A DNA stretch of 64,000 nt. It comes from an uncultured Clostridia bacterium. Its GTDB lineage: Bacteria > Bacillota_I > Bacilli_A > RF39 > UBA660. Under the pieces are notes generated by a model. It was not told the origin of the DNA and did not search any database. It saw only the letters and a list, made by a program, of their open reading frames with translations. Location: positions 957 to 64,956 of the forward strand of contig CAMVCF010000001.1 in NCBI GenBank assembly GCA_947165945.1. The letters run 5' to 3'. Each line of letters starts with the position of its first letter. Position 1 is the first letter of the stretch. This document shows, in pieces, positions 25,629-52,503 of the stretch. A program made the position numbers and the translations under genes.

Positions 25629-26747
25629 TTAAGCTTCTTTATATTCAGTTAAAGTTATTTTAGTTGTATTTTCTTTTCCATCACGAAGATAGGTAACAGT
25701 TATAGTATCTCCAGCATCGTATTTATAAAGCTCATATCTTAAATAAGCAACGTTTAAAATTTTATTATCATTTAATTTAGTTATAACATCGCCCTTTTTT
25801 AAATTTGATTTTGAAGCACCTGAATCTTTTGATATTTCAACAACTACTACTCCATCAGTTATATCTTGATCTAACATGATTCCACTTCTATATAAAGAAT
25901 ATGTATCAGTTGCATTGATCATACTAATTCCAAGCATAGGTCGAACAATTGCTTTACCAGTTTCTAAATTTTCGATATGACTCATAGCATATTCAATAGG
26001 AATTGCAAATCCCATACTTTCAACTTCTGTTTGAACAAGTTTCAAAGAAATAATACCAATTACTTCACCTTTAGCATTTAATAAAGGTCCACCAGAATTA
26101 CCAGGATTAACTGCTGCATTAGTTTGTAATACTTTCATGACGTAATCATTTGTATTTCCAGATATACTTACAGTTACCATTCTATCTTTTCCAGAAAGAA
26201 TACCATCAGTTACAGTTCCTCTATACTCATATCCAAGTGGTGAACCAATTGTAAAGACAGTATCACCTACTTTTGATTCTTCACTAGTTCCAATAACTGC
26301 TACATCAATAACATCACTTTTATTAATTCTTACAACTGCTAAGTCTAAGTATTCATCACTTCCTAAAACAGTTCCTTCAATTTCTTGATCATCACTTCTA
26401 ATTAAAGTTATTTTAGTAGCATCACTTATTACATGATGATTAGTTAATACGTATCCATATTTATCGTCTGTTTTATAAACAAATCCTGATCCAGTTGATT
26501 GAATTTGATCTCCCTTATAATTTCTTATCATAAGAACTGCATCATATACTTTTTCAACACTTGCAGATAAAGATCCATCATTTACTATAACAGTTTCACT
26601 ACAAGAGCGGCAAGTATTATTATTACTTAGATTAAGACTACTACCATCTAAAGTACTATTAACAGTTATATAATACATTAATAGTCCTCCAAGCATAAAA
26701 GCAACAAATAAATAAATAACTAAATTAATTCTATCTTTCCCTTTCAT
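25629..26747 (-). CDS. htrA: HtrA/DegP-family trypsin-like serine protease with N-terminal TM and C-terminal PDZ
   Basis: GTGSGFVYK, HVISDA and GNSGGPLLN give the catalytic triad context; PDZ-like tail. Confidence 0.85.
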   Translation of the reverse strand: MKGKDRINLVIYLFVAFMLGGLLMYYITVNSTLDGSSLNLSNNNTCRSCSETVIVNDGSLSASVEKVYDAVLMIRNYKGDQIQSTGSGFVYKTDDKYGYVLTNHHVISDATKITLIRSDDQEIEGTVLGSDEYLDLAVVRINKSDVIDVAVIGTSEESKVGDTVFTIGSPLGYEYRGTVTDGILSGKDRMVTVSISGNTNDYVMKVLQTNAAVNPGNSGGPLLNAKGEVIGIISLKLVQTEVESMGFAIPIEYAMSHIENLETGKAIVRPMLGISMINATDTYSLYRSGIMLDQDITDGVVVVEISKDSGASKSNLKKGDVITKLNDNKILNVAYLRYELYKYDAGDTITVTYLRDGKENTTKITLTEYKEA

Positions 26748-27684
26748 CTAAATCACCTCTTATATTTTTTAATTCATAATAATTCTTTGGAAATCCCATT
26801 CCATCTAAAACTTTATCTATTTTAATACTATGTAAATTTAATTCTAAATTATCTAAATTATGTTTTATTTCTTCAATTAAATTAGAAAATTCATCAAAAC
26901 TTAACATCTGTTTTAAAATAATTATTAAAGCAAATACATCTTTTTTACCATATATATATTCATCATCCATAATTGGAATATTCAAAAGTCTATGATAATT
27001 ATTATCATTTATTTGTCTTTGAGTTTTATTAGAGAATAAAATATCTTCATGAGCGCATAAATTTCTATAATTTGATAATATAGTTAAATAATTTGATAAA
27101 GTATCTATATCTAAATTATATAAATTAGCTATGCTCATTTGATCTTCTTTTTTTAAAATCGAATAAAGTTCTCCTACTATTCCAAATGATAAAACTTTTA
27201 CTAAAACCCATAAAGGAATATATCCATAATTATTAACATAATGACTTGTTGCTGAATGCTGAGTTGCATTTAAATTTATCTGCCTTTTCATTTTTTTTAA
27301 TATATCTAGTACTTGTTTTGTTTTTTCTTTATTGGTTGTAAAATTTTTAGGAACTAAATAATCTTTTTCTCTATATCCATATTTTAAAGATAATTGATAA
27401 CTAATAATCGATTTAATATTATTTTCAACAATTAATATATTTTTAAATAATATATTTCTAAATGTTCTATCAAATAAAAATAAACTATAAAGTTCCTCAA
27501 AAGTAGTTCCTTCTATATATCTTCTATCAACATTACTTCTTAGGAATAAATGTCTATATCCATTTAGAAAAAAATAATTTTCACGAAATAGTACTTCTTT
27601 AGCATATTCTGGATTATTTACTATTAACCCCTTACTTTTAAAAATTTCTACTTGCTCATTTAGGGTTTTAAATTCCTTTTTCAT
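26731..27684 (-). CDS. Abi_2 (AbiD/AbiF-like) abortive-infection family protein
   Basis: MKKEFKTLNEQVEIFKSKGLIV start is typical of AbiD. WVLVKVLSFGIVGELYS...LSNYRNLCAHEDILFS. Its 3' end overlaps the htrA start by 17 nt. Confidence 0.7.
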   Translation of the reverse strand: MKKEFKTLNEQVEIFKSKGLIVNNPEYAKEVLFRENYFFLNGYRHLFLRSNVDRRYIEGTTFEELYSLFLFDRTFRNILFKNILIVENNIKSIISYQLSLKYGYREKDYLVPKNFTTNKEKTKQVLDILKKMKRQINLNATQHSATSHYVNNYGYIPLWVLVKVLSFGIVGELYSILKKEDQMSIANLYNLDIDTLSNYLTILSNYRNLCAHEDILFSNKTQRQINDNNYHRLLNIPIMDDEYIYGKKDVFALIIILKQMLSFDEFSNLIEEIKHNLDNLELNLHSIKIDKVLDGMGFPKNYYELKNIRGDLDERER

Positions 27685-35683: not shown

Positions 35684-36694
35684 TTATTTACTTGGCATTA
35701 GACCAAACCCTGTTACAACTCTTCTTCCACCTGAAACAGTTTGACCAAATACATTTTTTGGATTATTAATAAGTTTTCCATTTACAACCATTTGAGCACT
35801 TGTTCCACCATCAAGGTTTGCAGCATTATAAGCTCCATATAATTCTAAAGTATCAATAACTTCTTTCATAGTAGGACCACTTCCATGAGTTCCTTCTGTT
35901 GCAAGGAATAAAATAACTCCATCCTTTCTTTGAGCAATAGCAACTCGAGCTGCTCGATCATATCCTCCTGCACTTGTTGTATATTTAATACTTTCACCAT
36001 TTAATATTAAAAATGGTCCAAATTGTATTCCATCACGAATTCCCATAGCAACGGCTTCTTCTCCTGTTGCATTTACTAAAGCTAATTTATGATCATTTGT
36101 AATTCCAATAATATCATGACGATCATTATTTTCTGCAAAGACAACTTCTCCATCTTTAATAACATATCCATCCGGAATATCACTTCCCCAGCCATCTGGA
36201 TCTTTAAATCCTCCACCATTTATACAAACAATGCCACCAACTCTTTTACACATTTTAAGAACAGTTTCTTGACCATTCCCTTTACTAAATGATTTAATTG
36301 TTAAAAGCTTTACATTTTCTGGATGGTAAATGGCAATTAAATGCGCATTATATTTTCCAACTTTTACCTTTAAATATTTATAATCATCATTTCCATTTTC
36401 TCTTTTTAAAATTGCTTCATCATATTCATTGTCATAACTTTTCTTTTCTGATGTATCAATTACAATTGCATCTAAATCCATTTTACCTGATACTGGAATA
36501 AATTTATTTAAATCAAGAATACCTTGAACTGTATCTTCATCATAAAAAGTATAAGCAATATATTGATGTGTCTTAGTAATCATAGCTGTATTTACAATTG
36601 TATTTCTAAAGTCTTCATTTGGACCATAAAAAAGATAAAAGCAACCTATTGCAATTAAATCAATAACCAAGAATAGTATTGTTGTTTTTCGCAT
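35684..36694 (-). CDS. Phosphodiester glycosidase (NAGPA/DUF2233) family protein
   Basis: CINGGGF...GPFLILNG...RVAIAQRKDGVILFL...NLDGGTSAQMVV. Confidence 0.6.
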   Translation of the reverse strand: MRKTTILFLVIDLIAIGCFYLFYGPNEDFRNTIVNTAMITKTHQYIAYTFYDEDTVQGILDLNKFIPVSGKMDLDAIVIDTSEKKSYDNEYDEAILKRENGNDDYKYLKVKVGKYNAHLIAIYHPENVKLLTIKSFSKGNGQETVLKMCKRVGGIVCINGGGFKDPDGWGSDIPDGYVIKDGEVVFAENNDRHDIIGITNDHKLALVNATGEEAVAMGIRDGIQFGPFLILNGESIKYTTSAGGYDRAARVAIAQRKDGVILFLATEGTHGSGPTMKEVIDTLELYGAYNAANLDGGTSAQMVVNGKLINNPKNVFGQTVSGGRRVVTGFGLMPSK

Positions 36695-36695
36695 C

Positions 36696-37961
36696 TTAAT
36701 CCTCCACTTTTATAATAAATGGTGCATATTTTGATCCATTTCCACTTATTATTTCTAAATCTTTTTTTATTCCTAGAGAAATTCTTATATTTCTTTTAGT
36801 ATTAGGATCGCTTTTTAAAATACTACCATTATAAACTTGTACTAAATTATTATCTTTATCACTTAAATAATAATTGTTAAGAGAACTATTAAACTTAAGA
36901 TCATTACTATTTAATATTCCAATTGATGATATATATCCATCAAACTTAACTTCTTTTAAAAGTTTCTTAAAAGATAATTTTTCTAAATAAGTATTTTCTA
37001 AATATTTTTTTAATGAAGAATTAGTATAATCACTAGAAGATTTATCAAATAATTCTTTATTTTGTAATACTTTATTACTTTCTACTTTATAGTAATCTTC
37101 TCCAACTTCATAAACTGTATAGATATTATCATCTATATCTAAATAAGTACCTACTTTTATATCTTTATTTCCAAGTTCTACAATATAAGGATTTTCAAAA
37201 CTTCCATCACCATTTAAATAAACTGTTGAATTTTTTAAAGTTACAACAACTTTAATTCCATAACTATTATTTGGACTACTATTAGCTAAATAACTTCCTG
37301 TTGTATGCCAAACATTTTTTTCTCCACTATTATATAACCAAATATATTCATTACCTGAATTCATATAAGTTTTATCATTATTTAAGCTATTCAAATAATC
37401 ATTAATTCCAAGTAATCTAATATAATTATCACTATTTGTTTCATTACAACTTATTTCAGATAATTCATGAATTATATCAGTACAATATGATGTTTTAACT
37501 AGTTTTTCTTGATCTAAGATAGGTAAAATCTTACTTTCTATATAACTTTTTATATTTGATTTATCATAAGTTGTAATTGTTTCATTCCAAGGTATACGAT
37601 TAATATATTCATCAAGAACTAAATCAATTGATTTATCAACATTAATACGAATTATTCTAAATAATAATTGATCAAGTAAAAGATAATTATTGACATTTTT
37701 TCCTTTATAAACATAATTACCATTTATTTCATATAATCCATCATTTTCTTCTTCTATCTTTTCACTTTCAATTATTTTAGATGATAAATTTAATAAAACT
37801 TCTCCTGTTTCTGTTTTAGGATTATATATTTTATAATACTTAATTAATCTATTTCCATAATATATAAAACAACCTAGAATAAAAACCAAACTCACTAGAC
37901 AAAATAAAGTTTGTATTTTAGGTAAAAATATTTTTTTTCTACGTCTTCTTTTCTTTACCAT
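36696..37961 (-). CDS. Hypothetical membrane-anchored extracellular protein (421 aa)
   Basis: Arg/Lys-rich N-terminus plus TM. Translationally coupled to the downstream glycosidase gene. Confidence 0.45.
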   Translation of the reverse strand: MVKKRRRRKKIFLPKIQTLFCLVSLVFILGCFIYYGNRLIKYYKIYNPKTETGEVLLNLSSKIIESEKIEEENDGLYEINGNYVYKGKNVNNYLLLDQLLFRIIRINVDKSIDLVLDEYINRIPWNETITTYDKSNIKSYIESKILPILDQEKLVKTSYCTDIIHELSEISCNETNSDNYIRLLGINDYLNSLNNDKTYMNSGNEYIWLYNSGEKNVWHTTGSYLANSSPNNSYGIKVVVTLKNSTVYLNGDGSFENPYIVELGNKDIKVGTYLDIDDNIYTVYEVGEDYYKVESNKVLQNKELFDKSSSDYTNSSLKKYLENTYLEKLSFKKLLKEVKFDGYISSIGILNSNDLKFNSSLNNYYLSDKDNNLVQVYNGSILKSDPNTKRNIRISLGIKKDLEIISGNGSKYAPFIIKVED

Positions 37962-38074
37962 AACTTACTCCTTTTATTCCAATAATTAGATTATACAAAA
38001 ATATTTAATTTAATTCAATATTTTTAAGAGTTAAATCAATAAATATGTCATATTTTGTCAAATTTTAAAAAAAA

Positions 38075-38100
38075 CAGATATTGCTATCTGTATTTAAATA
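38075..38100 (-). terminator. Terminator downstream of the P-II-like gene
   Basis: acagata-ttgc-tatctgt hairpin followed by T8 on the minus strand. Confidence 0.45.
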
Positions 38101-38265: not shown

Positions 38266-38907
38266 TCAATTAATACTATCTTGTAAACCAATTACATTAT
38301 CAAGAGGAATACTTATTAAAACACCTCTTGCATTAGTTTTAATTCCACATTCTTCAGTAATTTTTTCCATAACATCCTTTTTAATATCACTTTTAACAAT
38401 ATTTAAAACCATTTCTTTTTCAGGTTCTAAGGAAAAATCCATAAAAATAGTTCCATGACTGCCAACACTTCTTCCTTTAATAACCGTACCACCCATACAC
38501 CCTTTAGAATGAGCTGATTTCATTACTAAATCACTATAACCATCACTTACAATTGTAATAATTAATTCATAATCACCTTTTCTTGGCATATTCAACTTTT
38601 CCTTTCCTAAATTATCTTTTATAAATTTACTAGAACTTGATAAACTTATAGTAAAAGCAATTCCTTTTCCATTGTTTTCTAATTTACACCAATTTTTTAA
38701 ATCTTTCAAAATACTTTCTTCTAAACTTTCATCTATAAGAAGATAATAAATTTGTCTTTTTACTTTATTAAGTCCTAAATATTCTAAAATATTGCTACTT
38801 GCTGTTCCATCTCCCTTGGACATTACTTTATATCCTAAGTTATACTTTTGAAATAATAATTTCAATATTTTTTCATTATTATAAATAATAACCAATAATT
38901 TAATCAT
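38266..38907 (-). CDS. Tandem P-II (GlnB)-like domain protein
   Basis: Two roughly 100-aa halves with P-II-like beta-alpha-beta patterns, e.g. ELIITIVSDGYSDLVMKSAHSKGCMGGTVIKGRSVG. Overlaps the upstream membrane gene. Confidence 0.4.
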   Translation of the reverse strand: MIKLLVIIYNNEKILKLLFQKYNLGYKVMSKGDGTASSNILEYLGLNKVKRQIYYLLIDESLEESILKDLKNWCKLENNGKGIAFTISLSSSSKFIKDNLGKEKLNMPRKGDYELIITIVSDGYSDLVMKSAHSKGCMGGTVIKGRSVGSHGTIFMDFSLEPEKEMVLNIVKSDIKKDVMEKITEECGIKTNARGVLISIPLDNVIGLQDSIN

Positions 38908-40300
38908 AATCTACTATCCTATCATCTAAACTTTCAAAATCATGTAATACCACTTCTTTTTCATAAATAAATCCTGCAATTTCTAAAAATATAACTGGAA
39001 CAATTCCTATAAATGCAAGATAACCAATTGTATTTATACTACTATTTAATCCAAGTAAAAATGGAATAAAAAATGTCGAAGAAATTGTCCCAATAACTGC
39101 TCCAAGTGAATCAAACGCTATTCCTAAAAAATTATTTGGAGTTAAAAATGCAAGTATTAAAGCCAAAAAGAAACTAGGTATTAGAAACATCATAATATCT
39201 AAATTATATATAGAAATAAAAACTGATATAACTAATGCAATCGATGCTCCAAGAGATAAAAATAATTCTAAAAATTTATTCTTAATTCCACCACTTGTAA
39301 CATCTTCTACATAACTCATTAGGAAATTAAAAGATGGTTCTACTCTTATTATAAAAAATGAAAATAAAAATATAATTAATATTATAAAAAACTTAGAATA
39401 ATCTTTAATAACACTTCCTATTAAAAAAGATATATCTGAATAAGTTCTTGCACCCATTAAAAATAAACTAATTCCAATAAAGACTAACAAAAAACCTAAA
39501 CTGACTTCTTTTATATTTTTTTTATTTCGACTTATTTTAAATCTTATAAATATTAAATAAATAATAAAAATAAGTACTAAAGATAAAAAAATTACAAAAA
39601 GATTAAATAAAAAAGATATTTCTTTAAAACTATTTAAATCTAATTTAAAAAACATTCCGAAAATTAAAAATACAATCATAGGTCCAATAGAACAAAGACC
39701 AAGTATTCCAAAACTAGTATGATCTTTATTTTTTATTTTTGATCTTTTTGATAAACTCATTCCCATTGTAATTAAAAATGGTGCTGATACAAGTCCCATA
39801 GATAAAGCACTTCTTTCAAGAGCAAAAGGAATAATTTTAATATCTGTTATTAACATAAGTAAAAATACTAAAAGATAAGAAATAATTAAATAATACTTAT
39901 AATTTGTTTTAGATAAAATTCTATAAATTGATAATAGAAAAAAAAGACTAATACTAAAAGCTAATAAAAATAATAAGAATATATTCGGAAGAGATACTTT
40001 TAATATTTCTGGTTCTAATATAATAGTAAAAAAAGAAATAAGAAAGCATATTAGAAGCAAATAACTAATGTTTTTTTTCTTTAACAAAGTAAAACTAACT
40101 TTATCACTTATTTTAGGATAACTAAGATCATATCCAACTAAATAAAGAGATACTCCTATCATAATTAAAATAGAACTAAGTAAAAATTTAATTACTTCTT
40201 TTAAATCAATTGAAAAAATAATACTAAGAAAAATTACAAGGAAAGTAATTGGAATATATAAAAGTCCTATTTTTTTTAAAATTAAGATAAATTTATTCAT
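38900..40300 (-). CDS. DUF1538-like internally duplicated polytopic membrane protein
   Basis: 466 aa and at least 10 TM. Repeated FALERSALSMGLVSAPF / IAFDSLGAVIGTISSTFFIPF modules. P-II-associated context. Confidence 0.4.
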   Translation of the reverse strand: MNKFILILKKIGLLYIPITFLVIFLSIIFSIDLKEVIKFLLSSILIMIGVSLYLVGYDLSYPKISDKVSFTLLKKKNISYLLLICFLISFFTIILEPEILKVSLPNIFLLFLLAFSISLFFLLSIYRILSKTNYKYYLIISYLLVFLLMLITDIKIIPFALERSALSMGLVSAPFLITMGMSLSKRSKIKNKDHTSFGILGLCSIGPMIVFLIFGMFFKLDLNSFKEISFLFNLFVIFLSLVLIFIIYLIFIRFKISRNKKNIKEVSLGFLLVFIGISLFLMGARTYSDISFLIGSVIKDYSKFFIILIIFLFSFFIIRVEPSFNFLMSYVEDVTSGGIKNKFLELFLSLGASIALVISVFISIYNLDIMMFLIPSFFLALILAFLTPNNFLGIAFDSLGAVIGTISSTFFIPFLLGLNSSINTIGYLAFIGIVPVIFLEIAGFIYEKEVVLHDFESLDDRIVDYD

Positions 40301-40308
40301 AAATACTC

Positions 40309-41760
40309 CTATTTAAAGAATAATTTATATAAACTATTTTTCTTTTCAACAAGAGAATCATAATTACTTTTTAAATTAATACTTTTATAACAACTTTTTA
40401 AAATATCATTAATTGTACCACTTTCTATTAAATAATTTCTTTTTGTTAAAAAATCATCGATGTACAAAAATGGTAGTTCTTGAGAAAATATTACAGTAGA
40501 CATGGTATCTTTTTCATTTCTCATAGTCTTAGTCATTCCATAAAACGAAGATACGATTAAAGTATATTTACTTCCATTTCTATTTTCATCAAGTAATTTT
40601 AAAGTATTATCAATAACCATCAATTTATCTTTTAATTCTTTTGTTGTATTACAGTCACCTAATTCATAGTTAATTATTATTAAATCTTTATTAAATTGAT
40701 TTACAACTTGAACAATTCCAGCAGGATTATTTTCAATCTTTGTAATATCAACAAATGTTAAAGTATTAGTAGCTTCATTTTTAAGTCCGCAACAAAAATA
40801 ATTAATAATACCTACTCTATCACTTTTACAAAGTATTAATCCAGAGGCATTTAATTTTTCTAAATTATGAACCATACTATTTTTGGCAACTTCTGTTTCA
40901 TACATATGAGGAATATTTATATTACTTGTTACTGAAAACAATGAATAATATGAAAAATTATTTTTAGATTCTCCATAATTAATATTTGATAATGTATCTA
41001 TAAAACTAGTTAAATTTATATTATCATAATTAAAAATTAAAAATGTATCATTAATTCCTAAACTAAAATTAGAATTTACTATAAATGGTTTAGTTTCTCT
41101 AGGAAGTGTTTTCATAGCATATAAAACATCAAACTTTTGAGTAAATGATTGCCATTTTTCTCCTACTTTAGAAATAAACATCTTAAAGAAAAAATTCATA
41201 TCAACTTGCTTTGCACTATTAGAAATAGAATCAAGTCCTAAAATAAATCCTATTTCAGCATAATTAGATAAATCCATATTTATATGACTAAATACCTCAA
41301 CTAAATATTTATAATCTTCTATATTATTACTTGAAATAATTAAATGCAAAAAAACATTTTTTTTTAAATTAGGATTAATAAATTTTAAAGTCTCTTTTAA
41401 ATGATCAACTATTTTCAAACTAGGATCTACTAAACAAAACATATGTAAATTTCCATTTTTACTATCATAATCTTTTTTTAAATTTAATAAAGTTGAATTT
41501 TTAATTAAGTTTTTTGTCTCTATTTCCTTATCTAAAATACTATAACTATATAACTCATTTATATCCATAGAAACATTTCTATATGCATCATAATAATTAC
41601 TTACACGAGAAATAACTGAATTATTAGAAAATAAATAATTCCGAGATAACTCTGAAAATGTAGGCATCAAAGTATCATCATAAATAGGATATGATTCCTT
41701 CTTTTCAACCCCAAAGCCATTTATTAACATCAATACTGTTTTCTTATTCATATTCTTCAC
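40309..41760 (-). CDS. Catalytically degenerate paralogue of 2,3-bisphosphoglycerate-independent phosphoglycerate mutase (alkaline-phosphatase superfamily)
   Basis: Collinear with iPGM: TVLMLINGFGV~ALIILDGFAL, NLHMFCLVDP~SLHLFGLLSDGG, IINYELGDCN~ILNYANPDMVGH, YTLIVSSFYG~IAIITADHGN. It lacks the GQMGNSEVGH Ser-nucleophile segment, and DHGN is replaced by SFYG. Confidence 0.5.
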   Translation of the reverse strand: MKNMNKKTVLMLINGFGVEKKESYPIYDDTLMPTFSELSRNYLFSNNSVISRVSNYYDAYRNVSMDINELYSYSILDKEIETKNLIKNSTLLNLKKDYDSKNGNLHMFCLVDPSLKIVDHLKETLKFINPNLKKNVFLHLIISSNNIEDYKYLVEVFSHINMDLSNYAEIGFILGLDSISNSAKQVDMNFFFKMFISKVGEKWQSFTQKFDVLYAMKTLPRETKPFIVNSNFSLGINDTFLIFNYDNINLTSFIDTLSNINYGESKNNFSYYSLFSVTSNINIPHMYETEVAKNSMVHNLEKLNASGLILCKSDRVGIINYFCCGLKNEATNTLTFVDITKIENNPAGIVQVVNQFNKDLIIINYELGDCNTTKELKDKLMVIDNTLKLLDENRNGSKYTLIVSSFYGMTKTMRNEKDTMSTVIFSQELPFLYIDDFLTKRNYLIESGTINDILKSCYKSINLKSNYDSLVEKKNSLYKLFFK

Positions 41761-41833
41761 CCTTTATTCTATAACTAGTTTATCATAAAATTCAAAAAAA
41801 AAATAGAGGTTTTCTATTTTTTTCATTTGAGTT

Positions 41834-44266
41834 TTATTTTTTTATTTTCTTTTTAATATATTTAATTTGATCTGGATCGTCAAAACAATTTTCATCAAGT
41901 ATAACTTTTTCAATATCACCATTTGCTATATTTTTATCAATTATGTTTTTTATAGGAATAAAAGCACTTTGAATACCTCTAGCTCCTTGTTTTTTTTCAA
42001 GAGCTTTTTTAGCAAGCATTTTTTTAAACCCATCAGACATAGATACAACTATTCCATCACTTGCATAGCCTTTTTTTACTAAAGTTACAACTCCTCCATC
42101 TGGATTATCAATAATTTCATATAAAGTATCAAGATTAATATTATTTAGGGGAACTTTATTAGGAAATCTTCCTAAGAATTGTCTATCTAGTCCATATTCA
42201 TGTAGATCATCGTCAGTCGGAGTTTCGAGTTTTTTTATTTTGGAAGATTCTTGTCCAAATCCTACTTTTCCAAGACCTTTCTGTTTTTTTATTCTCTCTC
42301 TTATAAATTCATCTAACCCATCAAATGCACCTGTTCCTATAACCCAAAGATTAGAAGTATCAAATTCTATGGATGCTCGACCTGGAATTTTACTTTGAAT
42401 TACTCTTTTATCTCCTTCAATTAAAGTTAATAAATTGTATTGAACACCTGATGACATATCGTCAGAGTGATTTCCTTTTTCAACTTTAATCTTATCTATT
42501 TCATCAATATATAAAATTCCATTTTCTGCTTTTTCCAAATCACCTTTACTAACTTCAACTAAATCAACAAGCATTGAATCAACATCTTCTCCAACAAATC
42601 CAACTTTTGAATATCTTGTTGCTATTTCTCTTACAAATGGAATACTAAAAATATTTGCAAGAGCTCTTACAATTGCTGTTTTTCCTACTCCGGTTGGACC
42701 AAATAATAATATATTTTCTTTTAATTCGCGAAGTTCTTCTTTAGTATAATCACGGCGACGATTAAAAATATGATTAAAAAATGCATTTACAACATAAAAA
42801 ATTGCATCATCTTGACCTTTAACACTCTTCTTTATCAAATTAACTGTATCCATGATTGTTAAATCATTTATTGTTCGTTTATTTAAGGAAACATTAAGTC
42901 CATCATTTACAACTTTTTTTTCTTTATTTGATTTTGGCCTAATAACTTCTAAATCATCTTCTTCATTTATTAATTCATCATATGCTTCATCATGAAATAC
43001 ATTAACGGTTCCAATTTTTAAATCAAATATATCATCTCCTCTAAAATTTATTTCTTTTAAAGATATATCTTTTGATTCTAATAGATATTTCAATGTTCTA
43101 ATTATTCCCGAAAAACCTAAATTGAAATCCAATCCATAATCAACTAAAGTATTTATAAAATCATTACTAATATGAACTATTTTTCCTCTTTCTTCTAACA
43201 TTTTTTTTATCTTATATAATGGTGATGTTTTTTTATTTTTTAAAATATTACATGCAAGATCTTCAGTCATTTCTTCCATAAATATTGCTTCATTGTTAAA
43301 TAAGTCATCAATCATATTTAAAGAAAAACCTATTTCACTTAATCTTTTTCCATAAATTTTAGAATAATAAATATCATCATACTTAGCATCAGAAAAATCA
43401 TATTGCATATCTAAAATACAAACATTTGTGATAAATGAATAATCAAATTTCATAATTTTATTATCTTGACTTTTTAAATAAACATCTTGACTTTTCATGA
43501 TCATTTCAAGTTCTCCTACATATGATATAAGATCCCCTTCTTGATTAAATGTTCCAATTGATTCTATTCCATCAAAAATAACAATACCACGTTCAGCTAA
43601 ATATTTATTTCCACCAGCAAGAATTAATAACTGTTTTACTATATCAGTAATATCTTGAAATTTATCTCCAGTTAATTTATAAACTAAAACTGGAATTGGT
43701 GATAACATATTAAGAATTGAATCAACAATACTAGATTTTCCTGATCCTATTCCACCTATCAACAAAATGTTATTTTTATATTTATAAATATCTTCATATG
43801 ATAAATCTGATTCAAAATACATATGATTCTCATATATTTTTTTTAAGATCTTATCAATTGGTTTATCTTGACCTATTACTTTATCTTTTAAATCTTCTTT
43901 AACATAAGATACTAACTCTTCTATTTTATAATTTGGTATTAGTCTAAAATCATGATATTCATCATGAAAAGCAAGAGTTACATCATTATATTCATTAGGG
44001 TCTGATACTGAAACAATTTCATTACCTACTTCTTTATAAAAAATAAATTCATCCATTGAAATGTTTTCATATACGTCCTTATTAATTTCTAAATAAACCA
44101 TTCTTGATCTTTTATTTAGAAGACTTGATATTTCTTGATCTAAGAAATTTCCTTCTACAACCTTAATTTTGTCATCAAATGTAAGTTCTCCTATTACTTT
44201 ATCAATTACTTGATAATAAATAGTATCTTCATATAATATTTTTCGAAGTACTAAAGCATATTTCAT
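41834..44266 (-). CDS. Tandem ClpX-like AAA+ protein (810 aa): degenerate N-terminal module plus a canonical ClpX-type C-terminal module
   Basis: The C-terminal half reads NILLFGPTGVGKTAIVRALANIF...VGFVGEDVDSMLVDL...GILYIDEIDKI...GVQYNLLTLIEG...GLGKVGFGQ (IGF-like)...GARGIQSAF. The N-terminal half reads VIGQDKPIDKILKKIYENH...NILLIGGIGSGKSS...GIVIFDGIESI, so the Walker B DE is replaced by DG. Confidence 0.6.
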   Translation of the reverse strand: MKYALVLRKILYEDTIYYQVIDKVIGELTFDDKIKVVEGNFLDQEISSLLNKRSRMVYLEINKDVYENISMDEFIFYKEVGNEIVSVSDPNEYNDVTLAFHDEYHDFRLIPNYKIEELVSYVKEDLKDKVIGQDKPIDKILKKIYENHMYFESDLSYEDIYKYKNNILLIGGIGSGKSSIVDSILNMLSPIPVLVYKLTGDKFQDITDIVKQLLILAGGNKYLAERGIVIFDGIESIGTFNQEGDLISYVGELEMIMKSQDVYLKSQDNKIMKFDYSFITNVCILDMQYDFSDAKYDDIYYSKIYGKRLSEIGFSLNMIDDLFNNEAIFMEEMTEDLACNILKNKKTSPLYKIKKMLEERGKIVHISNDFINTLVDYGLDFNLGFSGIIRTLKYLLESKDISLKEINFRGDDIFDLKIGTVNVFHDEAYDELINEEDDLEVIRPKSNKEKKVVNDGLNVSLNKRTINDLTIMDTVNLIKKSVKGQDDAIFYVVNAFFNHIFNRRRDYTKEELRELKENILLFGPTGVGKTAIVRALANIFSIPFVREIATRYSKVGFVGEDVDSMLVDLVEVSKGDLEKAENGILYIDEIDKIKVEKGNHSDDMSSGVQYNLLTLIEGDKRVIQSKIPGRASIEFDTSNLWVIGTGAFDGLDEFIRERIKKQKGLGKVGFGQESSKIKKLETPTDDDLHEYGLDRQFLGRFPNKVPLNNINLDTLYEIIDNPDGGVVTLVKKGYASDGIVVSMSDGFKKMLAKKALEKKQGARGIQSAFIPIKNIIDKNIANGDIEKVILDENCFDDPDQIKYIKKKIKK

Positions 44267-44340
44267 AATAATCTCTCCTATAACTTATTATCATAAATTA
44301 AAAAAAAATAAAAAGAAAGATAATTGACACTTTCTTTATA

Positions 44341-47655: not shown

Positions 47656-48195
47656 CTATTCTTTCATTTTATTTTTATTTTTTATTTTAGAATATATAAT
47701 TGAAAATACTAATCCTATTCCACTTCCAAAAATATCAATCAAACAGTCATATAAATTACCAGTTCTACCACTTATAAATGTTTGATGATATTCATCTAAC
47801 AAAGCATATAAAAGACATATCAAAAGTGTTAATAAATAAACTTTTTTTTTCTTAAATGAACTTTTTTTTAAAGCCATTAAAAGAAGAAGTGCAAGTACAA
47901 AATAAACACTAAAATGCATTATTTTCCTAAGAGGAAAATTTAATTCTTCTACTATTAGTTTTATTTTTTTATTACTAGGATGTTTATTAGTAAGACCTAA
48001 GTCATTTGTTTTATTAAGTGTTACTTCTATTGTCTTATTAATCATATTTTCACTTTTTAAATTAGATTCATAACTTGACATATTAGAAAGTAAAAATATC
48101 AAAATCATCCATAGAAAAACTGTCAACCAAGAAAAAATTTGCTTATAATTTTTTCTTAATTTGGAAAAAAACTTATCTCTAAGTTTTTTATACAT
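47656..48195 (-). CDS. VanZ-like family membrane protein
   Basis: LLDEYHQTFISGRTGNLYDCLIDIFGSGIG, the VanZ signature. Start taken at the internal Met just after the nrdG stop. Confidence 0.6.
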   Translation of the reverse strand: MYKKLRDKFFSKLRKNYKQIFSWLTVFLWMILIFLLSNMSSYESNLKSENMINKTIEVTLNKTNDLGLTNKHPSNKKIKLIVEELNFPLRKIMHFSVYFVLALLLLMALKKSSFKKKKVYLLTLLICLLYALLDEYHQTFISGRTGNLYDCLIDIFGSGIGLVFSIIYSKIKNKNKMKE

Positions 48196-48757
48196 ATACA
48201 CCTCTTTTAGATTCCTCTTTTTCAGAATAAAGAATCTCATCAAATAAAACTATCTTTCCAGTTGATAAAGTTTTTGGAATATCAATTAATCTTTGATTTC
48301 TGGATCCTCTAAATAAAATACTTAAATCTCTTTCTTCTAATATAAACTTTCCATCAACAAGTACATCTATAACACTTAAAAAGTCTTTATAAATCGGTTT
48401 AGTTTTTGACATATCCATTAATTCTTCAAATGTAAAACCGGTGTAAACCCAAATGTCAAGTCCTAAAGAGCGGGCATATTTAGCAATTTCAAAACAAGCG
48501 TATGGTTGAAACATAGGATCTCCTCCACTCATTGTTAAACCTTTATGATATTCTAGTTCTTTTATAGCTTCTTTTACCATTTCAACAGGAACTAGTCCCC
48601 CTCCATTAAAATCCCAAGTTCCAGGGTTTTGACAACCTTTACAGTGATGATGACATCCTTGAGTCCATAAAACAGCTCTTAAACCAGGACCATCTACAAT
48701 ACTATCAGTTTGTAAATCTGCAGCAAGTCTTATATACTTCTTGTTATTTTGTTCCAT
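48188..48757 (-). CDS. nrdG: Anaerobic ribonucleoside-triphosphate reductase activating protein (radical SAM)
   Basis: WTQGCHHHCKGCQNPGTWDF with CxxxCxxC-type cluster motif. Confidence 0.85.
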   Translation of the reverse strand: MEQNNKKYIRLAADLQTDSIVDGPGLRAVLWTQGCHHHCKGCQNPGTWDFNGGGLVPVEMVKEAIKELEYHKGLTMSGGDPMFQPYACFEIAKYARSLGLDIWVYTGFTFEELMDMSKTKPIYKDFLSVIDVLVDGKFILEERDLSILFRGSRNQRLIDIPKTLSTGKIVLFDEILYSEKEESKRGVYV

Positions 48758-48899
48758 GACATACTCTATCTTTTACTTCTTCTTTTTTAGCATTGTTGAA
48801 TCTATCAAGAGTTCCAACTAAATATCCTGTTATTCTTCTAATACGTTCAAATTTTACTCCGTCTCCAACAGTTTTAATTTTTTTGTTTTCTTTTTCCAT
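48744..48899 (-). CDS. Stand-alone 51-aa ORF encoding an NrdD-type glycyl-radical C-terminal motif
   Basis: RBS AAAGGAGA plus ATG at 48899 gives MEKENKKIKTVGDGVKFERIRRITGYLVGTLDRFNNAKKEEVKDRVCHGTK (RxxGY...DRVxH). In a different frame from nrdD and below the 60-aa ORF cutoff. Confidence 0.45.
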   Translation of the reverse strand: MEKENKKIKTVGDGVKFERIRRITGYLVGTLDRFNNAKKEEVKDRVCHGTK

Positions 48900-48913
48900 T
48901 TTTATTCTCCTTT

Positions 48914-51190
48914 CTATCTACTATAACAGTCAAAGCAATTTACTTTTTCCATTTCAATTCCTTCGCCTTCTTTTCTTCCACATCTAGGACATACATCATT
49001 AATTACCCCTACATATCCACAAACTGGATCTCTATCAACAGGATGATTAATTGCTCCATATCCTATATCAGAATCATGCATAATTCTTACAACACTTTCA
49101 AATGCATCAACATTATTAACTGTATCACCATCAAGTTCTACATAAGAAATATGTCCAGCATTTGTAAACTTATGATATACTCCTTCAATTTCCATTTTAT
49201 GTTTAACAGTTGTCTTATAATAAACAGGAACATGGAATGAGTTAGTATAATATTCTCTATCAGTAACTCCTTTTATTTTTCCATATATTGATTTATCAAT
49301 TGCAACAAATCTTCCAGAAAGTCCTTCTGCAGGAGTTGCAAGACAAGTGAAGTTTAAATTATATTCTTTTGTATATTGATCACATCTTTCTCTCATATGT
49401 TTAATAATTTCTATTCCAAGTTTTTGAGCTTTATCTGATTCTCCATGATGTTCTCCAATAAGGGCTTTCAAAGTTTCAGCAAGGCCTATAAATCCTATTG
49501 ATAAAGTTCCATGCTTAAGAACTGTTCTAAGTTTTGAATTAGGTTCTAATTTTTCACTATTGATCCATACATGAGATCCTAGTAAAAATTTAAAGTTTCT
49601 TTGAGACTTTGAACATTGACATTCAAATCTTTGTAATAGTTGACCTTTAACTAAATCCATTAAATCATCTAGTTCTTTATAGAATGCTTTCATATCTGCT
49701 TTATCACGTTCTCCTAAAGCTATTCCGTACTTAATTCCAAGTCTTGGAAGATTGATTGATGTGAAACTTAAATTTCCACGTCCTGGAGTTACCTCTGGTC
49801 CACAAACATTTGCTAAAACTCTTGTACGACATCCCATATATCCAACTTCTGTTTGATAATCTCCCTCTTTATAAAATGGTTTATTAAAACTAGAATCAAT
49901 AAATGAGAAATTTGGAAATAATCTTTTGGCTGAAACACGACAAGCAAGTCTAAATAAATCATAACTTGGATCTTCTTTATTATAGTTAACTCCATCTTTT
50001 ACTTTAAAAATGGAAATTGGAAATATTGGAGTTTCTCCATGACCAAGACCAGCATCAGTTGCAAGTAAATAATTTTTTATAACCATTCTTCCTTCAGGAG
50101 ATGTATCTGTTCCAAAATTTACACTTGAAAATGGTACTTGTGCACCAGCTCTTGAATGCATTGTATTTAGATTATGAATAAATCCTTCCATTGCTTGATA
50201 TGTTGCTCTATCTGTTTTATTCCAAGCATTACTTTTAGATTTTTCAAAGATCTCTTTTATACGAGAACTTTTAGATATAAAATCATTAAAAATTTCTAAA
50301 TCAAATTCAATACTTTCAAGTTTATCAACTAATTCAATTACTTTATCAAATTTAATAAGTCCCATAAATCCTTCAAGTTCTAGTAACTCGGATAATTCTT
50401 GTTTAAACTCTTTTTTAAATGTTTTTAATACACCAGGTGCCATATAATAGTCAAATGCTGGAATACTTTGTCCACCATGTTGTTCATTTTGATTGGATTG
50501 AATTGCTATTGCTGCAAGGGAAGCATAAGACATGATAGAGTTCGGAGTTCTTAAAAAACCATGCCCTGTTGAAAAACCATTTTTAAACAATTTGTTTAAA
50601 TCTATTTGAGTACAAGTTGTAGTTCCCATTGCCCAGAAATCTAAATCATGAATATGAATTTCTCCTTCATCATGAGCTCTTGCATATTTACTATCCATAA
50701 GATATGCTTTAGCAAATTCTTTTGATACAGTTGATCCAAAATGAAGCATTGTTCCCATTGGTCCATCACCATCAACGTTTGCATTTTCTCTTTTTGAATT
50801 TTCTTCTGCAGCACTTTTAAGTCCTAAAGATTCTATTGCTTTTACAAACTTATGTTGTTGTTTTCCAACAAATGCATCACGTGATGCTGTACGTCTTTCT
50901 CTATATCCTTTATATGACTCATATACTTCATCATATTTCATTTTTTTAAGTACATCTTCAATTACATCTTGAATATCTTCAACACCAATTGTCTTTCTAT
51001 CTTGATATTTTTTTTCTATTTCAGATAATACTTTTTCTTTTACTTTATTAACATTTTTTTCATCATACTCATCGTATACACTATCAAATCCTTTTTTTAC
51101 AGCTATTGCTACTTTAGTAGGATTAAAACTAACTCTTTGACCACTTCGTTTAACAACAACGATGTCATTTAAAATATTTTTTTCCATCAT
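48914..51190 (-). CDS. nrdD: Anaerobic ribonucleoside-triphosphate reductase (class III), catalytic subunit lacking the glycyl-radical tail
   Basis: 758 aa with N-terminal ATP-cone (VVKRSGQRVSFNPTKVAIAV). Ends with Zn-ribbon CPRCG...CFDCYSR* and no RxxGY motif after it. Confidence 0.88.
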   Translation of the reverse strand: MMEKNILNDIVVVKRSGQRVSFNPTKVAIAVKKGFDSVYDEYDEKNVNKVKEKVLSEIEKKYQDRKTIGVEDIQDVIEDVLKKMKYDEVYESYKGYRERRTASRDAFVGKQQHKFVKAIESLGLKSAAEENSKRENANVDGDGPMGTMLHFGSTVSKEFAKAYLMDSKYARAHDEGEIHIHDLDFWAMGTTTCTQIDLNKLFKNGFSTGHGFLRTPNSIMSYASLAAIAIQSNQNEQHGGQSIPAFDYYMAPGVLKTFKKEFKQELSELLELEGFMGLIKFDKVIELVDKLESIEFDLEIFNDFISKSSRIKEIFEKSKSNAWNKTDRATYQAMEGFIHNLNTMHSRAGAQVPFSSVNFGTDTSPEGRMVIKNYLLATDAGLGHGETPIFPISIFKVKDGVNYNKEDPSYDLFRLACRVSAKRLFPNFSFIDSSFNKPFYKEGDYQTEVGYMGCRTRVLANVCGPEVTPGRGNLSFTSINLPRLGIKYGIALGERDKADMKAFYKELDDLMDLVKGQLLQRFECQCSKSQRNFKFLLGSHVWINSEKLEPNSKLRTVLKHGTLSIGFIGLAETLKALIGEHHGESDKAQKLGIEIIKHMRERCDQYTKEYNLNFTCLATPAEGLSGRFVAIDKSIYGKIKGVTDREYYTNSFHVPVYYKTTVKHKMEIEGVYHKFTNAGHISYVELDGDTVNNVDAFESVVRIMHDSDIGYGAINHPVDRDPVCGYVGVINDVCPRCGRKEGEGIEMEKVNCFDCYSR

Positions 51191-51633: not shown

Positions 51634-52503
51634 TTATTCATTTGAGATTAAGATGCTTTCTTTATTACTAGAAGTATTAATTCCAATTATATTTTTATCA
51701 CCAATTAGTATCTCAAGCTCTTTTTTTGCAATATTATTGAGCTTAACTAATCTTTCACTTTGTTTTATATTATTTTCAATCATATTTGCATTTAAAACTT
51801 CTAAATTACTTAAAACAACTAATTGTAAAACATCAGCATAATCTCTAATATTCCCTTTTAAATGTGGATTATTTTTTCTCCATTCTTTAGCTGTTTGACC
51901 AAACAATGCAACATTTATTACATCAGCCTCATCTGCATATACAAGTTGCTTTTGTTTCTCTGTTAATTTTGGAATAATGTTTTCTTTAATACTATCTGTA
52001 TGTATTCTATAATTTGTTTTAGTAAGCATTCTTCGTACTGACCATTCTATCTTTTCCTGATAACTTTCATTATATTTTAATCTTTTAAATTCTTTTATTA
52101 AATATATTTTAAATAAATTATCAATCCAGGAAGCAAATTCTAAGGCAATATCAGAATGGGCAAATGTTCCAATACTATATTTACCTTTACTATATGTCAT
52201 TCCGATAGCATTTACTTCTGTACACCATCTGCTTGGTGTCATTGTAAAAGACCTTTTAGGTGCTTCACTTTTAATTAGGCTGAATTCCGCCGAATTAAAA
52301 TTTTCATTACTTAATTTTTCCCATAAACCTAAAAATTCTATTGTATCATAATTGCTTAACCATTTTTTTATTACGTCTGATGGATCATTTGGATTTTTAT
52401 ATCTTGCTAAGTCAGTTAATGAAATATAATCCTCATCATTAATTCTCATTACTCTAATTTCATTTTCATTTACATTCAGAATAGTTGTAATTTTATCATT
52501 CAT
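51634..52503 (-). CDS. KilA-N domain protein (phage antirepressor-like)
   Basis: NENEIRVMRINDEDYISLTDLARYKNPNDPSDVIKKWLSNYDTIEFLGLWE...FAHSDIALEFASWI. Confidence 0.6.
   Translation of the reverse strand: MNDKITTILNVNENEIRVMRINDEDYISLTDLARYKNPNDPSDVIKKWLSNYDTIEFLGLWEKLSNENFNSAEFSLIKSEAPKRSFTMTPSRWCTEVNAIGMTYSKGKYSIGTFAHSDIALEFASWIDNLFKIYLIKEFKRLKYNESYQEKIEWSVRRMLTKTNYRIHTDSIKENIIPKLTEKQKQLVYADEADVINVALFGQTAKEWRKNNPHLKGNIRDYADVLQLVVLSNLEVLNANMIENNIKQSERLVKLNNIAKKELEILIGDKNIIGINTSSNKESILISNE

Follow-up and report, generated by a model that had tools for sequence, protein, structure and literature searches.

The window analysed here is a 64,000-nt stretch of contig CAMVCF010000001.1 from an uncultured Clostridia bacterium. 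The subject of this work is a block of four genes in it, which encode a ClpX-like ATPase, a degenerate relative of iPGM (designated pseudo-iPGM), a DUF1538 membrane protein and a tandem P-II-like protein. An earlier note on this DNA described the block as a single four-gene transcription unit, in which a metabolite-sensing module was proposed to control a membrane channel via an unfoldase. The four open reading frames (ORFs), claimed to be co-directional, were all found on the minus strand:

41834-44266, minus strand: ClpX-like gene, ORF of 810 aa
40309-41751, minus strand: pseudo-iPGM gene, 480 aa from the ATG at 41751 (the GTG-start ORF spans 40309-41760 and has 483 aa)
38900-40300, minus strand: fused double DUF1538 gene (UmpA-like half plus UmpB-like half), ORF of 466 aa
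38266-38907, minus strand: tandem P-II-like gene, ORF of 213 aa

The ATG at 41751 appears to be the better start for the pseudo-iPGM gene: the database homologues use this codon (480 aa) and not the GTG at 41760, which falls within the AAAGGGTG ribosome-binding site (RBS) of the gene. The spacing between the four genes, given in the earlier note as 74, 8 and -8 nt, was essentially right. The ClpX-like and pseudo-iPGM genes are separated by 73 nt (82 nt when counted from the ATG at 41751), the pseudo-iPGM and DUF1538 genes by 8 nt, and the DUF1538 and P-II genes overlap by 8 nt. The RBS of the DUF1538 gene (TAGGAG) overlaps the stop codon of the pseudo-iPGM gene, the junction being aaaTAGGAGtatttATG, and the P-II gene starts inside the 3' end of the DUF1538 gene (ATGATTAA).

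The earlier note placed a terminator only after the last gene. A stronger hairpin followed by a T-run was found between the first and the second gene, so the assignment was corrected as follows:

41761-41833, minus strand: spacer between the ClpX-like and pseudo-iPGM genes, with an A-tract, hairpin and T-run at 41794-41823, then promoter-like sites, then the AAAGGGTG RBS
38067-38091, minus strand: weak terminator-like hairpin after the P-II gene (ACAGATA gcaa TATCTGT followed by T8)
about 44301-44337 (feature 44287-44337), minus strand: terminator-like hairpin of dinB (AAAGAAAG...CTTTCTTT followed by a T-run)
44287-44295, minus strand: TG-extended -10 motif TATGATAAT, past the dinB hairpin and preceding the ClpX-like gene

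The consensus terminator scan needs at least three G-C pairs and missed the AT-rich hairpins, so the spacers were read and folded directly. The spacer between the ClpX-like and pseudo-iPGM genes was the most stable of the three that were folded (-16.1 kcal/mol, z=-4.4, with none of 200 shuffled sequences equally stable); its T-run consists of ten residues and is followed by the promoter-like sites TTGAAT-18-TAGAAT and TATGATAAA. The hairpin located 3' of the P-II gene reached -7.2 kcal/mol (z=-2.0) and the fold of the dinB hairpin was weak (z=-1.7). With the TG-extended -10 motif past dinB the ClpX-like gene shows putative start signals of its own.

The same spacer was then compared in 13 related loci that have both the ClpX-like and the pseudo-iPGM gene with a short distance between them. 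A T-run of 6 to 10 residues was present in all 13 spacers, usually with a hairpin ahead of it whose sequence differed between loci, and 12 of them carried a TGnTAnnAT extended -10 motif 15-20 nt past the T-run, against a rough chance expectation from base composition of about 0.07 matches per spacer. This comparative pattern argues for a separate promoter driving the last three genes. Because of the terminator-like hairpin and the recurrent -10 motif in the spacer, the ClpX-like gene looks like a transcription unit of its own.

Gene neighbourhoods were compared across about 90 related loci. The set consisted of 80 loci retrieved from species-representative genomes with the pseudo-iPGM alignment and of further loci, all of which were screened by tblastn and by clustering of the ORFs. 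Group A comprised 27 loci, including the contig of the window, in which pseudo-iPGM is at least 41 % identical; they come from 'Bacilli bacterium' metagenome-assembled genomes (MAGs) of the rumen and of the rabbit and human gut. Genes in this group usually follow the order TspO-DinB-[ClpX-like]-pseudo-iPGM-DUF1538-P-II-p421-NAGPA, where p421 denotes a 421-aa protein. The pseudo-iPGM, DUF1538 and P-II genes are tightly packed in approximately 23 of the 27 loci, down to 41 % identity, with gaps of 2-13 nt between the first two and of -26 to +4 nt between the last two. The overlap of stop codon and RBS, the 8-nt overlap and the maintenance of these short gaps indicate that the three genes form a tight operon.

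The ClpX-like gene was present in 13 group-A loci. It was absent from eight others in which the flanking sequence was sufficient to judge (L009, L012, L013, L016, L018, L022, L025 and L029); these keep the pseudo-iPGM, DUF1538 and P-II genes, and in L012 dinB lies directly upstream of them. The reverse situation, with the ClpX-like and pseudo-iPGM genes and no DUF1538 or P-II gene, was found in four to five loci (L010 and L027, also L090/L091 and L093), and in L005 three genes are inserted ahead of the DUF1538 gene. Three rabbit-gut MAGs carry an additional gene (ORF cluster 60, about 370 aa), either inserted between the ClpX-like and pseudo-iPGM genes or located next to them (L014:8758-9870, also L015 and L026); the junction of these two genes therefore tolerates insertions. 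Every presence/absence combination of the parts exists in relatives.

More distant homologues of pseudo-iPGM were found in about 59 loci that lack the other three genes and represent housekeeping contexts. Among the distant loci, 35 form group B, from RF39/'Tenericutes'-type MAGs, with pseudo-iPGM 28-35 % identical and the order P-type cation ATPase, pseudo-iPGM, RDD membrane protein, RpiB (e.g. L002:7309-12536); in this group (L002-L004, L031-L086) the start of the RDD gene and the stop codon of pseudo-iPGM usually overlap by 1-4 nt. The array is a second, independent coupling of the pseudo-iPGM family to a membrane protein. Group C, of about 14 loci, has a MarR gene, two ABC exporter genes, pseudo-iPGM, variable genes and GlyS-SepF-DivIVA, with larger spacers. 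No ClpX-like, DUF1538 or P-II gene was detected within 10 kb in the loci of groups B and C. The pseudo-iPGM family is widespread in uncultured small-genome Bacilli/Mycoplasmatota. The DUF1538 and tandem P-II genes also occur on their own, with the same 8-nt overlap, in Alteribacter (Bacillaceae), Carboxydothermus and Miniphocaeibacter; DUF1538 is fused there or divided into an UmpA/UmpB-like pair, and no ClpX-like or pseudo-iPGM genes are found.

Since the spacer signals recur in relatives and the parts are gained and lost independently, the region is best read as two adjacent transcription units, the ClpX-like gene and a three-gene operon, and not as one system; we put the probability of this interpretation at about 0.7. 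The first unit would be a single gene for a ClpX-derived unfoldase. The second would be the operon of pseudo-iPGM, the fused DUF1538 transporter and the tandem P-II protein, held together by translational coupling, within which DUF1538 and P-II constitute an autonomous, widely distributed pair of transporter and regulator. The single four-gene transcription unit of the earlier note was not supported, on account of the terminator-like and promoter-like signals, recurrent across 13 loci, that split off the ClpX-like gene. The comparison of neighbourhoods proposed there spoke for it in one part, as the complete set is kept in identical order by twelve related loci, and failed it in the other, as the genes are gained and lost separately and pseudo-iPGM occupies housekeeping contexts elsewhere. 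The system of unfoldase, sensor and channel fared no better: its parts occur separately, with the 59 or so pseudo-iPGM loci and the DUF1538/P-II pair standing alone. The locus is no new multi-gene system.

The domain layout of the ClpX-like protein is as follows:

43922-44266, minus strand: N-domain, aa 1-115, beta-rich, without a family match, in the place of the ClpX zinc-binding domain
43016-43921, minus strand: D1, aa 116-417, degenerate ClpX-type AAA+ module
41837-42913, minus strand: D2, aa 452-810, intact ClpX-type AAA+ module

The assignment of the protein as a tandem ClpX-like ATPase was confirmed, with D2 identified as ClpX by profile and PDB comparison and D1 as a degenerate copy by hhalign. 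D2 matched ClpX in the PDB with E=1e-46 and in Foldseek with E=4e-24 (TM about 0.85 on the target), and the best PDB matches of the AlphaFold model (mean pLDDT 82) were ClpX subunits of ClpXP complexes. It is an AAA+ module of the HCLR type, spans the whole ClpX AAA+ module at approximately 31 % identity and has the Walker A (GPTGVGKT), Walker B (YIDEIDK), Arg finger (GRFP) and sensor-2 (GARG) motifs and a pore-1 loop of the form G-[F/Y/I/L]-x-G (G[FYIL]VG in the list of window features). At the position of the ClpP-docking IGF loop of ClpX it carries the tripeptide [V/I/L/M/A]-G-F (aa 668-670), in a loop of low pLDDT as in ClpX. The Walker A, Walker B, Arg finger and sensor-2 motifs, with residues D588, E589, R700, G761 and R763, were invariant across the family alignment of 22 sequences, as were G669 and F670.

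D1 and D2 were aligned by hhalign over 277 columns with 99.5 % probability (E=3.9e-22). The best NCBIfam match of the N-terminal half alone was ClpX (E=7.5e-10), and in an exhaustive search of 1.84 billion representatives aa 110-400 matched ClpX-sized proteins. The Walker A motif of D1 is intact (G171, G174, G176, K177) and its Walker B motif keeps the Asp and has Gly in place of Glu (IFDG); no pore-1 loop, IGF loop, Arg finger or sensor-2 Arg was found in the D1 alignment. The N-domain is modelled by AlphaFold with pLDDT of about 88 as strands (2-86) and a helix (90-104), and M1, R8, Y17, Q19, K23 and E92 are conserved in the family. It gave no NCBIfam match, and no match to Pfam zf-C4_ClpX (PF06689) was found in the whole protein.

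The protein thus differs from ClpX in several respects. ClpX has a C4 zinc-binding N-domain, whereas the 115-aa beta-rich domain occupies this place here, and ClpX has one AAA+ module per subunit, whereas the chain studied has two, the first of them catalytically degenerate. The RKH loop is missing, the aromatic residue of the pore loop is variable (F/Y/I/L) and the scores lie below the NCBIfam equivalog cut-offs: 232.5 bits for aa 468-805 against ClpX (NF003745, cut-off 359) and 208.2 bits against TIGR00382 (cut-off 370.75). The family is small, with 10 representatives at E<=1e-30 among the 1.84 billion; a metagenome scan with the family alignment yielded two members, the remaining matches being canonical ClpX, and a literature search for a two-module ClpX found no description.

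Such an unfoldase probably arose through internal duplication, after which D1 would probably still bind nucleotide, without hydrolysis or a grip on the substrate. The protein is most likely hexameric and would feed substrates into ClpP, a partnership that is the most likely one since the intact D2 keeps the invariant [V/I/L]GF loop. A tblastn search with E. coli ClpP gave no match in the window and 92 loci (1.5 Mb), a result that concerns the loci only and is uninformative on the genomes. The N-domain together with D1 could serve as a substrate or adaptor platform in place of the zinc-finger domain.

Taken singly, the pseudo-iPGM sequence barely matches iPGM: it scored 38.2 bits against TIGR01307 (cut-off 330.65) and 18.1 bits against Pfam iPGM_N (cut-off 27). 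A profile built from 18 homologues matched iPGM in the PDB with E=4e-20 over positions 52-459, and in the search with the AlphaFold model (pLDDT 89.2) the top 22 Foldseek matches were all iPGM (best E=5e-25), the next fold being alkaline phosphatase (2.5e-5). The resemblance to GpmI/iPGM extends over nearly the full length and includes the two-domain architecture, in which the transferase domain is inserted into the phosphatase domain.

The catalytic set of iPGM, which we take to be Ser62, D12, D403, H407, D444, H445 and H462 (B. stearothermophilus numbering, 1EJJ/1O98), is lost. In the profile alignment the position of Asp12 is an invariant Asn (N11), the Ser62 nucleophile corresponds to a Tyr that is not conserved, the segment with Asp403 and His407 is deleted, Asp444-His445 is replaced by Leu-Tyr (within SSLYG) and the position of His462 is not conserved. 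Thus, unlike in GpmI, the Ser62 and Mn-ligand positions are replaced, deleted or unconserved and most of the substrate-binding Arg/Lys residues are gone; the Arg residues are replaced and only His123 (H136 here) is retained. The protein has its own conserved motifs, which GpmI does not share (LxNGxGxE, H136, GEKW, D235, N241, D381, SSLYG), and 24 invariant and 11 near-invariant residues across a range of 25-100 % identity; the polar ones include N11, E16, S20, H136, E198, K206, D235, N241, D381, S402 and Y404. A further difference from GpmI is that the gene is coupled to membrane-protein genes and not to glycolytic genes. The claim of a degenerate iPGM paralogue without the catalytic Ser and metal ligands was therefore borne out, for the fold by profile and AlphaFold/Foldseek comparison and for the residue losses by alignment, and the reading as a pseudoenzyme is supported at the level of sequence. 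A literature search for an iPGM pseudoenzyme returned nothing relevant.

The invariant residues are identical whether the neighbouring gene encodes DUF1538, the RDD membrane protein or neither, so the function of pseudo-iPGM is considered independent of the ClpX-like protein and of DUF1538/P-II. It is a protein conserved throughout the lineage that has probably lost the phosphotransfer chemistry. We propose, with low confidence, that it acts as a ligand-binding accessory or regulator at the membrane, together with cation-transport proteins. A role as membrane accessory or sensor is compatible with the coupling to DUF1538 in group A and to RDD in group B, and with the terminal helix of a distant member described next; one member of the RDD family is reported as a Na+/H+ antiporter (PMC5996927).

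The distant member, P0099 (532 aa), differs from GpmI in having a C-terminal hydrophobic, predicted transmembrane helix, LFILVFVVLIALLLFMYIL, besides the LMNGFG and SSLYG motifs, which suggests a membrane-anchored version of pseudo-iPGM. Another database protein, P0098 (671 aa, on a 2-kb contig), was considered as a fusion of ClpX and iPGM and rejected: it consists of an unrelated AAA_5/MoxR-like part followed by about 78 aa of pseudo-iPGM at its end. The chimera is probably an artefact of assembly or gene calling and was disregarded.

The duplicated DUF1538-type membrane protein of the earlier note was likewise recovered: the protein matched Pfam PF07556 in two stretches with 214.7 bits, above the gathering score, and its halves are 25 % identical (E=0.001). 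Matches to NCBIfam UmpA and UmpB were partial (61.3 and 40 bits against equivalog cut-offs of 490 and 500), and a PDB sequence search revealed no solved relative. UmpAB of Halomonas zhaodongensis, a heterodimeric Na+(Li+,K+)/H+ antiporter, represents the only characterised DUF1538 proteins (PMC5484666), and the same study was the only relevant paper found in a literature search for DUF1538 with P-II. UmpAB and the window protein belong to the same Pfam family and both contain two homologous DUF1538 units; unlike the UmpAB heterodimer, the window protein is a single fused chain, is only distantly related and has a tandem P-II gene downstream.

The P-II-like protein itself matched Pfam PF00543 in its C-terminal half only and below the cut-off (20.9 against 25 bits). 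Full-length homologues of 220-250 aa (E down to 1e-23) from Bacillaceae, Carboxydothermus and others carry PF00543, and the family alignment has a clear internal repeat. In a profile comparison with P-II proteins of the PDB the C-terminal half scored E=1.3e-7 and the N-terminal half E=2e-3, so that at the level of the family both halves are P-II-like, as the claim of a fused double P-II protein had it. According to the alignment, the loop motifs for nucleotide binding, GGT..GRG and GKGIAF, are kept, at least in the C-terminal half. The best PDB match of the C-terminal half was 9p1x, a 105-aa 'P-II family nitrogen regulatory protein' with 12 chains. Together with the results above, profile and structure comparisons upheld all four family assignments (ClpX, iPGM, DUF1538 and P-II).

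The pairing of DUF1538 with P-II, described as known, does recur in cultured Firmicutes, and the pair studied here is a further instance, in fused form, of this known but unstudied combination. GlnK gates AmtB and SbtB gates SbtA. The arrangement in the window resembles both cases in that a P-II-family gene lies directly downstream of a transporter gene and is translationally coupled to it; it differs in that two P-II domains are joined in one chain and the partner is DUF1538 and not Amt or SbtA. If AmtB-GlnK and SbtA-SbtB are taken as models, the most likely role of the P-II protein would be to bind to the cytoplasmic face of the DUF1538 transporter and to gate it according to adenylate or metabolite status.

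Several points weigh against the interpretation as two units and its extensions. The hairpins are AT-rich and become weak once the A/T tracts are removed, so read-through from the ClpX-like gene into the downstream genes is possible. Every locus with the ClpX-like gene (about 18) has the pseudo-iPGM gene next or next-but-one downstream, and a functional link between the two may exist. The ion specificity and the P-II/DUF1538 interaction are extrapolated, with scores far below the UmpA/UmpB cut-offs.

The proposal that all four genes form one co-transcribed system, with pseudo-iPGM and/or P-II as the metabolite sensor controlling a channel via the unfoldase, draws on the shared strand, the close spacing and the twelve loci that keep the order. 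It is considered very improbable, as the conserved terminator-like and promoter-like spacer follows the first gene, all partial combinations occur in relatives with DUF1538/P-II autonomous elsewhere, and the 59 or so pseudo-iPGM loci do without the other three genes. The whole stretch from TspO-DinB to p421-NAGPA is moreover syntenic, and the co-location therefore reflects shared ancestry within a narrow clade. A narrower version, in which the ClpX-like protein and pseudo-iPGM are functional partners (as adaptor, regulator or dedicated substrate) and DUF1538/P-II is incidental, would explain why the ClpX-like gene was never found apart from the pseudo-iPGM gene (13 group-A loci and L090-L094) and why it is confined to the clade with the closest pseudo-iPGM variants. 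We regard this as unlikely: eight loci keep pseudo-iPGM without the ClpX-like gene, among them L012 with dinB directly upstream, genes are inserted between the two in L014 and L092, each has separate promoter and terminator signals, and the invariant residues of pseudo-iPGM are identical in lineages without the ClpX-like gene. Shared ancestry is sufficient to explain the co-location, since the ClpX-like family is tiny and the whole neighbourhood is syntenic.

Another possibility is that the iPGM-like protein is an enzyme of altered chemistry, for example a sugar-phosphate mutase or phosphatase that needs no metal and may act together with RpiB in the metabolism of pentose phosphates, in which case the link to transporters would be mere operon packing. 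The 24 invariant and 11 near-invariant residues, polar ones included, the alignment of H136 with the substrate-binding His123 and the position of RpiB two genes downstream in the 35 group-B loci are in its favour; the loss of Ser62, the lack of any conserved metal ligand, the replaced substrate-binding Arg residues and the 38 bits against a TIGR01307 cut-off of 330 make it rather doubtful. It is also conceivable, if quite improbable, that pseudo-iPGM is a conserved, cytoplasmic, ligand-sensing subunit docking onto unrelated cation transporters (DUF1538 in the clade of the window; RDD and the P-type ATPase in RF39-like lineages), with a membrane anchor of its own in one distant member, and that the two-module ClpX, in the clade that carries it, is the dedicated remodeller or degrader of this sensor. 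If this were true, the two proteins would form a pseudoenzyme-based circuit of transport control specific to small-genome gut Bacilli.

Under the preferred interpretation as two transcription units, what is new at this locus is modest, namely the two-module ClpX and pseudo-iPGM, each an undescribed variant of a known family. When a genome is compact and strand-biased, a shared strand and close spacing are not enough for a system, and here presence/absence comparison together with spacer signals split the locus into its parts. Two unnamed protein families are thereby flagged in abundant, uncultured gut Bacilli. A ClpX with a duplicated AAA+ module, a dead first copy and a kept ClpP-docking loop is a natural experiment in class-II unfoldases turning two-tiered, and the iPGM-derived pseudoenzyme is widely conserved and, in two lineages, shows translational coupling to genes for membrane proteins. 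The DUF1538/tandem P-II pair of cultivable Bacillaceae offers a tractable route to the P-II gating of a poorly understood transporter family.

The surroundings appear to be ordinary chromosomal DNA from a gut bacterium of the Bacilli/Mycoplasmatota type that is uncultured, anaerobic and very low in GC (about 24 %). The window has a very high AT content (GC about 0.17-0.30), most of its genes lie on the minus strand, base composition is even across the region, and the neighbours are housekeeping genes (DinB, TspO, VanZ, NrdD/NrdG, IleS, NAGPA). An Rfam scan of the whole window gave three tRNAs only, and neither a riboswitch nor a leader in the vicinity of the operon. The earlier note had also speculated on a defence or signalling module. 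PADLOC gave no support for defence: the matches for the four proteins were generic AAA P-loop ones (IetA 37.7 bits, partial), with none for the three proteins other than the ATPase, and the reading as a defence system was rejected.

Further genes of the window, all on the minus strand, were recorded as follows. At 35684-37961 the gene for p421, a protein with a membrane segment at its N-terminus and without a Pfam match, precedes one for NAGPA phosphodiester glycosidase; most group-A loci have this pair downstream of the operon, and it stays where DUF1538/P-II is absent. Abi_2-like and HtrA-like (trypsin-PDZ) genes at 25650-27678 are found in group-B genomes directly upstream of the P-type ATPase/pseudo-iPGM array, and this pair appears to be left over from an earlier gene order common to both. 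The anaerobic ribonucleotide reductase genes NrdG/NrdD at 48188-51190 indicate an anaerobe, and the KilA-N domain protein encoded at 51634-52503 may be phage-derived.

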